From: Candidatus Aenigmatarchaeota archaeon
GTDB taxonomy: Archaea > Aenigmatarchaeota > Aenigmatarchaeia > Aenigmatarchaeales > Aenigmatarchaeaceae
Assembly: GCA_043814985.1 (NCBI GenBank)
Contig: JBDRJK010000014.1
Coordinates: 45,108-109,107, forward strand
Direction: 5' to 3'
DNA length: 64,000 nt
Shown piece by piece: positions 7,442 through 39,823 of this stretch; within the stretch, counting starts at the first letter, position 1; each line of letters begins with the position of its first letter. A program made the position numbers and the translations under genes. Under the pieces are notes generated by a model that saw only the letters and a list, made by a program, of their open reading frames with translations, did no database searches and was not told where the DNA came from.

Positions 7442-8100
7442 TTACTAAAAAATTAAGTTCTATGTCTGATAAAATGAAAAGAAAAAAAACCGTAGAGAAA
7501 GAATTTGACGATTTATGGAAGGAAACAAAATCAGTTTCATTTCTGGGAGGAATAATTTTCTATATATCTGAGAGGGCAGCAATGAAGTCGATAGGCTTCA
7601 TCAGCAGAAAATCCAAGGTTGTAGATGTTGGTTGTGCTACAGGAAGAACCCTCCTTCTTTTTAGAAAATACGGCTTTTCAGACAGCATTGGAATAGACAT
7701 ATCAAAAGAGAGCCTGAAAATATGCAATTCAGAGGGTCTTGAGACAGGCAAGGATGTTTTTCTCATGGATGCCAAACGCATGAAATTCAAGAAAAGGTCC
7801 TTTGACTTGGTATTTGCAGAGGGACTTCTTGAGCACTTTGAAAACTTCCAGCCCTTTGTTGACGAGATGTGCAGGATAAGCAAGAAATATGTTATGGTAA
7901 TACAACCTAATGCGTTCTCTTACTGGCATCATATAGAAAATTTTTACTGGAAATTTTTCCCAAGGGACCATGTAGAGCAGCTGGCATATAGCTTGGATGA
8001 TTTCAACAAAGCCTTTATGAAGAACAACTTCAAACTTAAAAAGGTTAAAAACTTAATTTTAAATTCAGGTTGGTCAATACTTTACGAAAGAAAAAAGTGA
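7438..8100 (+). CDS. Class I SAM-dependent methyltransferase
   Basis: VDVGCATG motif I, GIDIS, FDLVFAEGLLEH; true start may be a downstream ATG. Confidence 0.9.
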   Translation: MITKKLSSMSDKMKRKKTVEKEFDDLWKETKSVSFLGGIIFYISERAAMKSIGFISRKSKVVDVGCATGRTLLLFRKYGFSDSIGIDISKESLKICNSEGLETGKDVFLMDAKRMKFKKRSFDLVFAEGLLEHFENFQPFVDEMCRISKKYVMVIQPNAFSYWHHIENFYWKFFPRDHVEQLAYSLDDFNKAFMKNNFKLKKVKNLILNSGWSILYERKK

Positions 8101-34122: not shown

Positions 34123-34192
34123 AAGATTACCTATCAAACAATTGAACAGAAAGCTTTAAATCCCTTTTTTTCCAATTAATTTTGTTGGTTAA

Positions 34193-34246
34193 ATGAGAAG
34201 CAGACTCTACTTCAAGTATACACAGTATTTCTTTACATTTATGTAG
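34193..34246 (+). CDS. Putative leader peptide MRSRLYFKYTQYFFTFM
   Basis: Read directly; 3 Tyr + 4 Phe in 17 aa; stop 46 nt before the aspartate kinase ATG. Confidence 0.7.
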   Translation: MRSRLYFKYTQYFFTFM

Positions 34247-34248
34247 AG

Positions 34249-34289
34249 TCAACACTTTTCTTCTCAACTCTTCTGAAAAAAGGTGTTGA
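34249..34289 (+). promoter_or_regulatory. Hairpin sequestering the aspartate kinase Shine-Dalgarno
   Basis: TCAACACTTTTCTTC (34249-34263) pairs with GAAAAAAGGTGTTGA (34275-34289), 14/15 pairs incl. one G-U; contains AGGTG 34281-34285. Confidence 0.7.
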
Positions 34290-34292
34290 ATA

Positions 34293-35588
34293 ATGACAAT
34301 AGTTCATAAATTCGGTGGCGGCATAATAAGAGACGGAAGCGGTCTTGCAGACATAGAAATGGTTACTAGAAGCTATGATGTTCCGCAACTAATTGTTGTT
34401 TCTGCCCTGAAAGGTGTTACAAATGAATTAAGAGAATATTTGGAAAGAGACGAACCCAACATTGCCAGAAGCACTATAGTAAATTATGCCCTTACTGGAA
34501 GAGACTGGATTAAAGGCAATAATGAACGCGATTCATTTCTCAGAAAATTAAAAGATTTACAAGAAGAATTGCTAGACCCAGAGTTAAAAGTTGATGAAGT
34601 CCTATCTTTCGGAGAAAGGCTCTCCACAGAATTTTGTTATCATGCCCTAAAATCTAGGGGAATAGATGTAGGTAAAGTCAATTATGATAGATACCATCCT
34701 CTCGATTTCTCAATCATCTGTTCTGAACATAAAGAGGATGCTGATCCAATACTTGAAAAAACAAAAAACAATTTTGGCTTAGTAAAAGAAAAGATGGAAG
34801 AGCATGATGTAGTTGTTTTGCCAGGCTTTATTGGGGTAACTGAACTAGGTGAATTGAGAACATTGGGTAGGGGCGGTTCGGATACCACTGCTCTAGCTTC
34901 TGCTTATGCATTAGATGTAAATGAAGTTAATCTATGGAAAGATACAAAGGGAGTAAGAACAGCTGACCCGGGAATAGTTAAAAATACTAGATTAATACCT
35001 CACATTTCATATTCGGAAGCAAACAATATGACCAAGTCTGGGGCAAAGATAGTGCAGCACAAATCATCCAAACTTGCTGAAGAAACCGGAATCAAAATGA
35101 GAATACCTTATATTAAGGATTCAAGTATTTTCACTGTTATTAATGGTGAAAGGAGAGCAGAAGAGCCTCTGGTAAAGTATGTTGGAGGGACCGACAGTGC
35201 AAAAATGATATCATGTAGTTTTGACGAATTTCTTGAAATAAGAGAAGAATGCCAAAAGCAAAACCAACAGGACGATTTTTTTATACTTCATGGAAACTAC
35301 AACAATTTAAGAGTCTTGATTTTGAATAATAAAAATAATATCCACAAAGGCAAAAAAGTTGGTGTGGCTACTTTGGTTGGTGACAGATTAAAAGAAACAA
35401 AGGGTGTATTAGAAAGAGCTTCTCACCAATTGAGGGAACAGAAAATAAATATTATTGACTATGGTAGTGGTGGTGAGGAAGAATTGTACATGTCTTTTAT
35501 ATTGAAAGATACTCTTACAAAACCCTCAATAAGAGCATTACACAAGAAATTCATAGAGGAAGACACATTCTGGAAGAACAGAAATTAA
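34293..35588 (+). CDS. lysC: Aspartate kinase
   Basis: HKFGG, VVSA, SFGERLS, PGFIG, TLGRGGSDTTA, TADP; ACT-like C-terminus. Confidence 0.9.
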   Translation: MTIVHKFGGGIIRDGSGLADIEMVTRSYDVPQLIVVSALKGVTNELREYLERDEPNIARSTIVNYALTGRDWIKGNNERDSFLRKLKDLQEELLDPELKVDEVLSFGERLSTEFCYHALKSRGIDVGKVNYDRYHPLDFSIICSEHKEDADPILEKTKNNFGLVKEKMEEHDVVVLPGFIGVTELGELRTLGRGGSDTTALASAYALDVNEVNLWKDTKGVRTADPGIVKNTRLIPHISYSEANNMTKSGAKIVQHKSSKLAEETGIKMRIPYIKDSSIFTVINGERRAEEPLVKYVGGTDSAKMISCSFDEFLEIREECQKQNQQDDFFILHGNYNNLRVLILNNKNNIHKGKKVGVATLVGDRLKETKGVLERASHQLREQKINIIDYGSGGEEELYMSFILKDTLTKPSIRALHKKFIEEDTFWKNRN

Positions 35589-35624
35589 TCAAGCTTAAAT
35601 AATTTACTTTTCATAAAAGCTTAT

Positions 35625-35696
35625 ATGTTGGGCACACTTGAAAAACTTTCAATCAAGATTTCTCTATCTTCATCTGGCTCATGCTGTTCAGAATAA
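35625..35696 (+). CDS. Putative leader peptide MLGTLEKLSIKISLSSSGSCCSE
   Basis: Read directly; 7 Ser, 2 Cys, 2 Gly in 23 aa; stop 42 nt before serA-like ATG; TTAAAT box at 35595-35600. Confidence 0.7.
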   Translation: MLGTLEKLSIKISLSSSGSCCSE

Positions 35697-35738
35697 TTCC
35701 ATTGGAATAATTCTTCTTTAAATTATGAGGGGATAAAA

Positions 35739-36635
35739 ATGACAAAAATATATGTTGCTGGCGGGCTGGATGGAAACAGGATAGCAGAATCCTGTGGTGT
35801 AGACCTGGCACCAAAAATCGAGGACGCCGAGATACTGGTTACAAGGAGCAAAACAAAAGTCAACAAGGAGCTAGTAGACAAAATGCCATACTTGAAGTAC
35901 GTAATAACCGCCACTCACGGCATTGACAATCTCGATACTGAATACTTAACAAGAAAAGGAATAGAATTTCACCCTGTTCCTGCCCAATCCTATGATGTCG
36001 CGCAGGGTGTTATAGGTTATATTTTAGCTCATGCCACAAACCTTGTAGAAGGAGACAGGTCAATGAAACGCGGTGAGTGGAAAAAGAAAGAATTCTTTGG
36101 TCACAGAATAAATGAGAAGACCTTGGGAATAATCGGTTGTGGGAAGATAGGTAGAAATATTAAGAAAATGGCTTCTGCTCTAGGTATGGATGTTGTTACT
36201 TTTGATGCGTGTGTTGAGACTGAGGAATCAGTGTCTTTTGAAGAACTCTTAAGAAAGTCAGACTATGTGACTGTCAATGTTCCTCGAACCAAAGACACTA
36301 TAAATTTGATAGGAAAGGAAGAGATTGAAATAATGAAAGAGGGGGCCTACATAATAAACACAGCAAGGGGTGGAATAGTTGATGAGAAAGCCCTTCTTGA
36401 GGCAATAGATAGTGAGAAACTGTCTGGTGCTGCCTTGGATGTTTTTAAAAATAACTCTGAAAATAATCTACCATTTGGAGACAACAGTTCTGGAAGGCTA
36501 ATAGCTCATGAAAAGGTAATAGCTACGCCGCATAGCATTGGTCAAAGCCAAGAGGCTGTTGACGACAAGCATGAAGGAGTAATAAGAATCATTAAGAATT
36601 ATATAAGTAATAATAACAAAATAGAAAGTGAGTAA
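35739..36635 (+). CDS. serA: D-3-phosphoglycerate dehydrogenase-like 2-hydroxyacid dehydrogenase without ACT domain
   Basis: VTRSKTKV, GIIGCGKIG, INTARG, ALDVF, TPH; overlaps serS frame; DVFxxEP region is divergent. Confidence 0.7.
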   Translation: MTKIYVAGGLDGNRIAESCGVDLAPKIEDAEILVTRSKTKVNKELVDKMPYLKYVITATHGIDNLDTEYLTRKGIEFHPVPAQSYDVAQGVIGYILAHATNLVEGDRSMKRGEWKKKEFFGHRINEKTLGIIGCGKIGRNIKKMASALGMDVVTFDACVETEESVSFEELLRKSDYVTVNVPRTKDTINLIGKEEIEIMKEGAYIINTARGGIVDEKALLEAIDSEKLSGAALDVFKNNSENNLPFGDNSSGRLIAHEKVIATPHSIGQSQEAVDDKHEGVIRIIKNYISNNNKIESE

Positions 36636-37926
36636 AATGCTTGATATAAAAGTTATAAGGGAGAATCCGACCATTGTAGAAACTGACTTGGATAAAAGGG
36701 GAGACAATGAAAGGAAGAAAATCCTGAAGAAACTTGTTGAAGACGATAAGAAATACAGGGAACTTCTCCAAGAGGTGGAAGACTTAAAACACAAGAGAAA
36801 CGTTCTTTCCAAGGAAATAGCTTTATTGAAAAAGGACAACAAGGATGCTGCTTCAAAACTAAAGGAAGCTGCAGAAATTCCAGAAAAAATTAAGAAACTG
36901 GAAGAAGAAATTTCAAAATTAAAAGAAAATATTGATTTGGCCTTATACAGGATACCCAACCTTCTCCATGAGTCTGTTCCTGTTGGCAAGGACGAGTCCG
37001 AGAATGTTGAGATAAGGAGATGGGGGAAACCTCCTAAATTTGATTTCGAGCCAAAAAGCCATTTTGAAATATTGAATGACCTTGGGATGATAGATGCTGA
37101 GGCAGCTGCAAGGGTTTCAGGCAGCCTGTTCTTCTTTTACAAGGGTCCAATTGTTTTGTTAGACCTTGCATTGCAAAGATTTGCTCTGGATATCATGGCC
37201 AAAGAGGGATTCCAGATTATTTATCCACCATTCATGGTCAATAAGAAAGTCTACGAAGGAATGATAGGAGACCCTACTGACTTTGCTGAAGCGAGCTACA
37301 AGATAGAAGGAGAAGAGCTGTATCTGATACCAACAGCAGAATATCCACTTGGGGGAATGTACATAGACCAAACCATCAATCAAAAAGACCTGCCCTTGAA
37401 GTTATGCGGTGTAAGCTCCTGTTTCAGAAAAGAGGTTGGCACGCACGGCAAGTTCTCTAAGGGCTTGTACAGGATGCACCAGTTCAACAAGGTTGAGATG
37501 ATTGTGATGTGTTTGCCTGAAGAGTCTTGGGACTTCCATGAAAAAATGCAGAAAATTTGCGAAAGTGTCTACCAACAATTGGGTTTGCATTACAGGGTCG
37601 TTAATGTTTGCACTGGCGACATAGGAACCAAGGCATCCAAGAAGTATGATACAGAGATATGGATGGCTGATGGAAATTTCAGAGAGGTCGGTTCCAATTC
37701 AAATGTTCTGGATTATCAGGCAAGAAACTTGAACACAAAATACAGAGAAAAAGAGGGTCAAGCCCCAAAGGGATTTGTACACATTCTTAACAATACAGTT
37801 CTAGCAACCTCAAGAACAATGCTTGCTATTCTAGAGCAATACCAACAAAAGGACGGAACAGTACTAATACCAAAAGTTCTGCTGCCCTACATGGGTGGAA
37901 TCAAAAAACTTGAAAAGCTCAAGTAA
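36628..37926 (+). CDS. serS: Serine--tRNA ligase
   Basis: MLDIK coiled-coil arm, IPTAE, FRKE, RMHQFNKVE, HILNNT; start may be ATG 36637. Confidence 0.95.
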   Translation: MSKMLDIKVIRENPTIVETDLDKRGDNERKKILKKLVEDDKKYRELLQEVEDLKHKRNVLSKEIALLKKDNKDAASKLKEAAEIPEKIKKLEEEISKLKENIDLALYRIPNLLHESVPVGKDESENVEIRRWGKPPKFDFEPKSHFEILNDLGMIDAEAAARVSGSLFFFYKGPIVLLDLALQRFALDIMAKEGFQIIYPPFMVNKKVYEGMIGDPTDFAEASYKIEGEELYLIPTAEYPLGGMYIDQTINQKDLPLKLCGVSSCFRKEVGTHGKFSKGLYRMHQFNKVEMIVMCLPEESWDFHEKMQKICESVYQQLGLHYRVVNVCTGDIGTKASKKYDTEIWMADGNFREVGSNSNVLDYQARNLNTKYREKEGQAPKGFVHILNNTVLATSRTMLAILEQYQQKDGTVLIPKVLLPYMGGIKKLEKLK

Positions 37927-38704: not shown

Positions 38705-39823
38705 ATGGAACTAAACATATGGGACTTGCCAATAAACAAGTTTTATGTTAAGTTGAATAAGGATTTTGTAGAAGAGGCTTTGAGTAAAATAAAATCTAAA
38801 TATGGCAGTTACAAAAAATTTTATAATAAATACAACATAGTAGAAAGCACCTTTTTTGGTTGGCGTAGAAACTGCCTTTACCCCTTACCAATTGTTATTA
38901 AACTTTGTAAACTGCTGGGCATACCCTTGGATTATATGCAAAAAAGCGTAACAGAATTAAAAAGCAAGCCATACCCTTCCAAGGGTGGAGATATAAGTTC
39001 TCCCATATTTCCAAATTTTCCCTTGAAACTATCCTTAGAACTTGTTAGACTAATAGCCCACATGTTGGGCGATGGTTGCATAACTCTCAATAAAAAGGGG
39101 CATTACAATTTTCAATATTACAATAAAAGTGAACATCTCAGAGAAATGTTTAAAGCCGACTCAAGAAAAGTTTTTGGAAATTTGTATATACATGAAGCTG
39201 TCAACAAAGGAACGCCATACATATTTTTACCTGCACCCGTTGCTATAATATTTCTCCATTTAGTGAAGGATTTTCACAGCAAGAAAAGTAGAGTGCCCAA
39301 ATTCATAAAAACATCCTCTTCCAAAGTAAAGAGAGAGTTCATTAAGTCTATCTTTGACGATGAAGGCTCTGTCAAATTTAGGAAGAATGAAAGAAATATA
39401 GAATTTGCACTGTCAAACAAGCCATTTGTAAATGATGTAAAAATATTATTGAATGAATTTGGAATAAAGACTTCTAAGATTTCAGAAAGAACTGATAAAA
39501 AAGGATATTACAAGGCTTATTTTTACATAAGAAACTACCATAACATTTCTAAGTTTTATAAATCCATAGGATTTTATCATCCGAAAAAACAGAAAAAACT
39601 AGAGGAAATTATTAAGTTTCCGGGAAGAAAGAGCTATGCTCGCGGTGAGACGAAGAAACTCATTATAAACTTGTTAGAAGAAAGACCTTTTAGTACCTTT
39701 GAACTTTCCAAGAAACTTGAAAGAAGTATAGTTAATGTAGATATTTTTGCCAGAAGACTTAAGAACGATGGAAAGATAGAGCGTTTTAAGACTGGTAAAC
39801 AACTATTATGGAGAGTGAAATAA
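38705..39823 (+). mobile_element. Free-standing LAGLIDADG homing endonuclease with HTH domains
   Basis: LIAHMLGDG and FIKSIFDDEG motifs; N- and C-terminal HTH-like segments; no intein splicing residues seen. Confidence 0.85.

Follow-up and report, generated by a model that had tools for sequence, protein, structure and literature searches.

A putative leaderless leader-peptide attenuator with a serine run ahead of a SerA-like gene in an Aenigmatarchaeota genome

The window analysed here is a stretch of 64,000 nucleotides from a Candidatus Aenigmatarchaeota archaeon, whose genome (G000; 808 kb, 91% complete) carries archaeal genes. The gene order at the locus is tyrS, two reverse-strand genes of the aromatic pathway (for DHQ synthase II and ADH synthase), an aspartate kinase gene, a gap of 150 nt, a SerA-like dehydrogenase gene, and serS (Table 1). 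In a genome of the same genus (G002), tyrS is followed by the leader, the dehydrogenase gene, and then serS, and a tyrS match lies near serS in 22 of 30 serS loci of relatives. From these arrangements, the leader and the dehydrogenase gene look as if they had been inserted between tyrS and serS. Further along the window, a free-standing gene with a LAGLIDADG domain (38705-39823) stands directly 5' of a gene of 756 aa, which we take to resemble topoisomerase I.

Table 1. Positions of the genes and sequence elements discussed, numbered from the first nucleotide of the window (SD, Shine-Dalgarno sequence).
Feature	Position	Strand	Remarks
Candidate leader MRSRLYFKYTQYFFTFM (followed by a stop)	34193..34246	+	3 Tyr, 4 Phe; 38 nt past TATA at 34155
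TATA box P1 CTTAAATA	35594..35601	+	Leaderless promoter; uORF ATG 31 nt downstream
14/16 palindrome with second TATA-like box P2 (35620)	35612..35627	.	Spans the predicted start; identical in G002
Leader uORF MLGTLEKLSIKISLSSSGSCCSE (followed by a stop)	35625..35696	+	23 codons
Anti-SD 1 TATCTTCAT	35665..35673	+	Inside the Ser run; predicted to pair with the SD when the ribosome is on early codons
Stem over the stop codon	35690..35714	+	3' arm competes with the SD hairpin for 35712-35714 (anti-anti-SD)
Local SD-sequestering hairpin, TCTTCTT (35712-35718) with GAGGGGA (35727-35733)	35712..35733	+	7 bp; SD at 35727-35733
ACT-less SerA-like D-2-hydroxyacid dehydrogenase	35739..36635	+	Nearest proteins from Bathyarchaeia
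serS	36637..37926	+	Starts 1 nt past the dehydrogenase stop; TIGR00414 over cut-off; own SD-like GTGAG

A preliminary description of this DNA had singled out the short upstream open reading frame (uORF) ahead of the dehydrogenase gene, and both the uORF and all other strings that it gave were confirmed in place. It had also noted that TTAAAT at 35595-35600 is spaced for a leaderless start near the ATG at 35625. This spacing is the same in both genomes (the TATA box of G002 is TTTAAATA), and it fits the leaderless peak of the genome: across 412 upstream regions of G000, the starts of YTTAWAW peak 29-31 nt before the ATG, with 17, 30, and 12 of 243 matches. The promoter matrix gives P1 a score of 10.1 in G000 and 12.0 in G002, the quartiles of the training set being 9.7, 11.4, and 12.6. 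The leaderless start itself thus held up; what had been overlooked is the second TATA-like box in the palindrome across the start codon, a candidate operator or rival promoter (P2). None of 94 leaderless promoters has a second TATA-like site at the position of P2.

Serine accounts for 7 of the 23 codons in G000 and 10 of 23 in G002 (called genes, 6.6%). The Ser fraction of the uORF ranks fourth among 369 intergenic short ORFs and its Ser/Gly/Cys window third, with a p value of 2.7e-5 that becomes about 0.2 after correction for 369 x 18 tests; composition alone does not exceed chance and is not decisive. Seven short ORFs combine leaderless spacing with a long gene downstream, and the leader uORF is the only one of these that is rich in Ser. 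The top match of the composition scan lies on another contig (G000:C7) and is a Ser-rich ORF of 41 codons, 37 nt past a TATA-like site and 145-271 nt upstream of a gene with no assigned role (7590-8090, minus strand).

A full-length DNA match to the leader was found in 2 of the 371 genomes of the phylum, G000 and G002, and it is on these two full sequences that its conservation rests; among 41 genomes, an orthologue-level match to the dehydrogenase (about 75-76%) was likewise found in G002 only. The leader peptide of G002 is MLSLSEKISSIISLSSSGSCCSE, followed by a stop. Its N-terminal half varies between the genomes and its C-terminal Ser run does not: 36 of 36 nucleotides are identical from the promoter to codon 2, 15 of 27 in codons 3-11, 36 of 36 in codons 12-23, and 40 of 45 from the stop to the dehydrogenase start. 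The four-fold sites of three neighbouring genes, in contrast, have diverged (50/92, 81/132, and 31/55 identical, or 54-61%), and against the pooled synonymous difference of 282 in 770 codons the identity in codons 12-23 has a p value of about 0.004. By this comparison, the Ser run is constrained at the nucleotide level. Conservation combined with composition and spacing exceeds chance.

The preliminary description had named an untranslated or non-conserved uORF, together with an enzyme unrelated to serine metabolism, as what would count against it. In G002, 12 substitutions in codons 3-11 have left frame and length unchanged, with no indel and a change of stop from TAA to TGA. The 6 amino-acid differences are without exception non-synonymous, and three add Ser; the uORF thus carries no protein-coding signature. 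A contig of 206 nt from run X5 spans 35592-35797 without a gap and with 9 differences, at a depth of 2-2.5 and known by its difference counts alone; two short coding contigs compared in the same run differ at 15 of 126 and 16 of 151 positions. Searches with the peptide end SSGSCCSE plus stop gave 6 metagenome matches, none of them near relatives of the four neighbour genes, and these were judged to be chance matches.

Were the gene under ordinary repressor control, the palindrome across the start would be the operator, and the uORF and hairpins would be neutral or would serve mRNA stability. The perfect retention of the palindrome in the two genomes and its rarity among leaderless promoters speak for such an arrangement, which would, however, leave the 36/36 identity of the Ser run and the SD-compatible changes described below unexplained; moreover, only two other sites in the genome come within 2 mismatches of the palindrome, neither shown at a serine gene. 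As a full account of the locus we hold repressor control to be very unlikely, although an operator is compatible with an attenuator and the two could coexist.

To describe the RNA, we modelled the folding of the predicted transcript with a ribosome footprint placed on each codon in turn, varying the 3' edge of the footprint around that of Haloferax ribosomes as given in the available part of PMC7261190. The same source reports that serine hydroxamate caused ribosome pauses at Met instead of Ser in Haloferax. The 3' end of the 16S rRNA, GGATCACCTCC, was located in the genome. The preliminary description had proposed a hairpin over the stop at 35691-35713, and this is present as described, with a single mismatch in each genome that is a different one in each. 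It had further proposed that TATCTTCAT in the Ser run pairs with ATGAGGGGATA (35725-35735), which comprises the SD. This pairing does appear in folds with the ribosome on codons 2-9, and the change in the SD between G000 and G002 (G-U to A-U) keeps it. As the main closing helix, however, it is surpassed by the stronger local SD hairpin, which had been overlooked. The local hairpin competes with the stop-codon stem, with which it shares three bases, and in the predicted folds it gives a closed state with the ribosome at the stop.

The predicted cost of opening the initiation region (-13 to +3, 37 °C, footprint edge +12) in G000 is 4.5-5.9 kcal/mol with the ribosome on codons 2-10, 3.3-3.9 kcal/mol at Ser13-Gly18, and 5.5-6.5 kcal/mol from Ser19 to the stop; the corresponding values for G002 are 5.6-7.1 (codons 2-9), 3.5-5.3, and 6.8-7.6 kcal/mol. 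In both genomes, the step between the stalled and the closed states is thus predicted to be small, about 2.5-3.5 kcal/mol, with the SD more open in the stall, and it holds at both temperatures and all four footprint edges tried. This agrees with the polarity first proposed, in which a stall on Ser codons exposes the SD. The sites where a ribosome would normally dwell, initiation and termination, are both closed in the model, and a Ser stall is open. The open state is reached at all four edges for Ser13, Ser15-17, and Gly18, interrupted in G002 by bumps of one codon, at two edges for Ser19, at one for Cys20, and at none for Cys21, Ser22, or the stop. Given this open window, the leader is likely to be a sensor of Ser, perhaps also of Gly, rather than the Ser/Gly/Cys leader of the preliminary description; serine is the likely signal, and cysteine would be sensed at most marginally.

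Without a ribosome, the RNA is predicted to open at a cost of 3.8 and 4.25 kcal/mol, almost as readily as in the stalled state. In sets of 150 synonymous recodings, 16 and 9 attain the step of the native sequence between stop and stall, and 61 and 21 attain the early step; the native codons thus appear to outperform their synonymous alternatives weakly. The folding energy of the region as a whole is unremarkable (z -1.17).

These folds also bear on the possibility that transcription is driven by P2, with its TATA at 35620 and a start near 35650. Such a transcript would lack the AUG and act as a structured 5' UTR or as an RNA bound by a protein such as SerRS, the Ser codons being a by-product of a pyrimidine-rich anti-SD. 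P2 and P1 score alike (10.6 and 10.1), the variable stretch of codons 3-11 occupies the place expected for a promoter spacer and retains GAAAAA and TCAA, and the conserved block contains no synonymous change. On the other hand, the distance from P1 to the ATG is exactly 31 nt in both genomes, and the variable stretch has gained Ser codons without acquiring an indel or a stop. A transcript from P2 is predicted to fold with its SD closed (4.8 and 6.7 kcal/mol), so that an opener would be needed. Against a structured RNA, no Rfam family matches the leader at gathering score (best 18.8 bits, with riboswitches, T-box, and serC leader included), nor was anything relevant found by Rfam in the window stretch or in six loci, and leaders matched to their genes occur at other loci of the genome and of the genus. 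We consider transcription from P2 unlikely.

Quite unlikely, in our estimate, is control of transcription by the leader, in which the U-rich tract at 35710-35718 would be an archaeal terminator (poly-U, aCPSF1/FttA), exposed with the ribosome at the stop and acting on serS too. Termination of this kind is described for archaea in the available part of PMC8116511, and the tract is present in both genomes, U making up 10 of 12 nt in G002. A C interrupts it, however; full-length folds leave little of it unpaired in any state (0.10-0.24 with the ribosome anywhere from codon 12 to the stop), and the changes between the genomes keep the pairing of the SD. A classical terminator of the trpL type was not found at the leader either, there being no G+C-rich hairpin.

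The dehydrogenase has 298 residues and no ACT domain. Its best family among 22 is TIGR01327, with 228.8 bits, under the cut-off of 454 for a model that includes ACT domains. After G002, the best of 980 matches are 55-63% identical, and those that bear a taxon name are mostly from Bathyarchaeia, which suggests that the gene was transferred from that group. By sequence and by fold, the best solved relative is the phosphoglycerate dehydrogenase (PGDH) of P. horikoshii (1wwk), and the nearest folds to a structure model of a Bathyarchaeia protein (P0009; low-confidence region 112-132, rmsd 11-13) are PGDHs. With this ACT-less type III PGDH the dehydrogenase shares length, the two-domain fold, and the RSxTKV, WxK, RGG, and TPH motifs; it differs in its substrate loop (ATHG for RAGxG), in lacking the invariant Glu, and in an identity of only ~37% for the Bathyarchaeia model. 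We take this Glu to occupy the usual catalytic position of the enzyme family.

The genomic setting of the enzyme's relatives points to serine metabolism. In 24 of 35 loci, a class V aminotransferase gene of the SerC type lies directly upstream of the dehydrogenase relative, and genes for cysteine synthase and for members of the D-cysteine-desulfhydrase family are often nearby. The aminotransferase of a Bathyarchaeia locus is 37% identical to that of a serB-aminotransferase-serA operon. In all five Bathyarchaeia genomes tested, one of them complete, the dehydrogenase relative is the only PGDH-family match; at one locus (L045), a second, more canonical PGDH-like gene stands beside it. G000 itself holds a ThrH phosphoserine phosphatase and GlyA, both over cut-off, plus a cysteine synthase homologue. 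A serC-type gene was not found in G000, which is 91% complete. Neither of two aminotransferase queries had a match, and the one Pfam class V match, which scores very high on the model, is read as a probable cysteine desulfurase. With its PGDH relatives and the SerC-type neighbours in Bathyarchaeia, the enzyme is likely linked to serine metabolism. Elsewhere in G000 (C21:88897-91290), a tRNA-Cys gene lies directly upstream of the cysteine synthase homologue and a cysS-like gene.

One proposal of the preliminary description did not stand. It had suggested that the leader might replace the feedback control lost with the ACT domain, but ACT-less relatives of 295-313 aa are the norm without a leader. 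Because this length is common among relatives that lack such a leader, no causal link to ACT loss can be drawn, and the replacement is a rationale rather than a finding. A Ser-run ORF at leaderless spacing was seen at none of 32 other loci inspected. Nor was a Ser leader found before canonical serA or serC-serA in the best 30 loci of 121 matching genomes, or in 20 upstream extensions of canonical serA loci. The thrH, cysK, and glyA genes of G000 showed no leader of any kind. Single-protein scans of genome contigs returned distant relatives only.

The Bathyarchaeia loci have leaders of another kind. At 23 of them (L046-L066, L076, and L077), a promoter and 5' leader are kept 150 nt upstream of the dehydrogenase gene; these leaders share a GGGA..TTCCC hairpin, 14 have a short ORF whose peptide is not conserved, and those tested have no Rfam match. 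Homology of the G000/G002 leader to them was rejected, as it falls outside the 12 best genome matches of three profiles built from the 23 loci, for which short look-alikes exist. Upstream of serS, by about 90 nt, five loci (L011, L012, L013, L015, and L019) of nine searched have a uORF of 6-7 codons reading M-P/T-Y-Q-S-x, with synonymous variation, an SD-like site, and no consistent fold switch.

Leaders whose codons match the gene that follows recur in the phylum. The Tyr/Phe candidate of the window precedes the aspartate kinase gene (34293-35588), next to the genes for DHQ synthase II and ADH synthase, which use aspartate semialdehyde. Within 34155-34292, an 11-bp hairpin is predicted to cover the kinase SD, and the fold is predicted to open at Tyr12-Phe14 and also at the stop; a contig of run X4 spans 34202-34354 without a gap, differing at 14 positions. 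Among 17 aspK loci, all five of family f36 have Met/Thr/Lys leaders 28-30 nt from a TATA box, two have aromatic leaders, one (L125) is ambiguous, and nine have none. The aromatic pair comprises the window locus and G112, where the leader has Trp, Tyr, and Phe and a DHQ synthase II gene lies 2.7 kb downstream of aspK, so that both are tied to DHQ synthase II genes. The five f36 leaders (L123, L124, L127, L128, and L130; ~1353-1503) have a consensus structure of 26 pairs, 8 of them changed on both sides, which includes a helix on the SD and in which alternative helices are kept by covariation, and single folds show no consistent switch.

The 30 best leuA-family loci, drawn from 41 matching genomes, yielded three Leu-run leaders, one of them before leuA in the same-genus genome G001, and one Ile-rich leader, which precedes a cimA-like gene that matches citramalate synthase best among the families. 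They lie at L192:1341-1400 and, on the minus strand upstream of the gene, at L199, L203, and L219, and in 2 of the 4 folds the Leu run is predicted to pair with the initiation region. A consistent switch was not seen in the folds of several of the parallel leaders. Five amino-acid classes (Ser, Leu, Ile, Met/Thr/Lys, and aromatic) each match their gene, in matches that were picked by eye, among kin that are not independent, and with no shuffled leader-gene control. It seems somewhat more probable than its converse that small-genome archaea of the phylum run a set of leaderless translational attenuators of these five classes, with new ones arising on horizontally acquired biosynthesis genes, and that the Ser leader arose after a Bathyarchaeia-type serA had been inserted between tyrS and serS.

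Leader-peptide attenuation is textbook knowledge for bacteria. The enterobacterial attenuators trpL, hisL, thrL, leuL, and pheL have codons rich in the end product and alternative helices chosen by the ribosome, and include multivalent leaders for branched pathways, to which the Met/Thr/Lys leaders may be compared. The present leader differs from them in its leaderless start, in having no terminator hairpin with a U run, and in an output that appears translational. Among archaea, a Met-Trp minigene was reportedly proposed by Xie and Reeve in 2005 for trpY of Methanothermobacter thermautotrophicus; there too, an ORF sensed by the ribosome would precede an amino-acid gene, though with two codons rather than 23 and in the context of another amino acid and lineage. 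The closest likeness is to the mycobacterial polycysteine attenuator Ms5788A, in which, according to the available part of the report (10.1101/834739), a leaderless short ORF heads the operon, its C-terminal run of sensed codons pairs with the downstream SD, and stalling frees the SD. There the pairing is one very stable duplex, whereas the archaeal leader, with Ser in place of Cys, would be a weak switch of several helices, among them a second hairpin acting locally on the SD; no relation in sequence between the two is to be expected. At the level of titles and abstracts, with few subscription papers covered, we found no description in print of leader-peptide attenuation in archaea or of a serine leader-peptide attenuator, and the word "attenuation" is absent from the available text of a review of archaeal transcription-translation coupling.

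From the sequence, spacing, conservation in two genomes, and predicted folds, observed or computed as above, we infer that the leader is a leaderless leader-peptide translational attenuator sensing charged tRNA-Ser, a reading to which we give a probability of roughly two in three. Transcription from P1 would start at or beside the uORF AUG, on which ribosomes would load in leaderless fashion. With serine plentiful, ribosomes would spend most of their time in two positions: on the initiation codon, with anti-SD 1 masking the SD, and on the stop codon, where melting of the stem would let the local SD hairpin form; in both positions the serA-like gene would be poorly translated. With serine short, a stall at Ser13 or Ser15-17 would cover anti-SD 1 and leave the stop-codon stem intact and the SD hairpin weak, and translation would rise. 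With its own SD-like site, serS would perhaps be affected only through coupling.

If this reading is correct, serine synthesis and seryl-tRNA synthetase would be placed under a serine gauge read by the ribosome, in an element of under 150 nt. Reduced archaea would then tune their few remaining amino-acid pathways via the ribosome, using leaderless initiation. The codon content of a leader may also name the pathway of an ambiguous enzyme, as for an aspartate kinase of the aromatic or the aspartate-family pathway, for LeuA versus CimA, and for the odd SerA described here.
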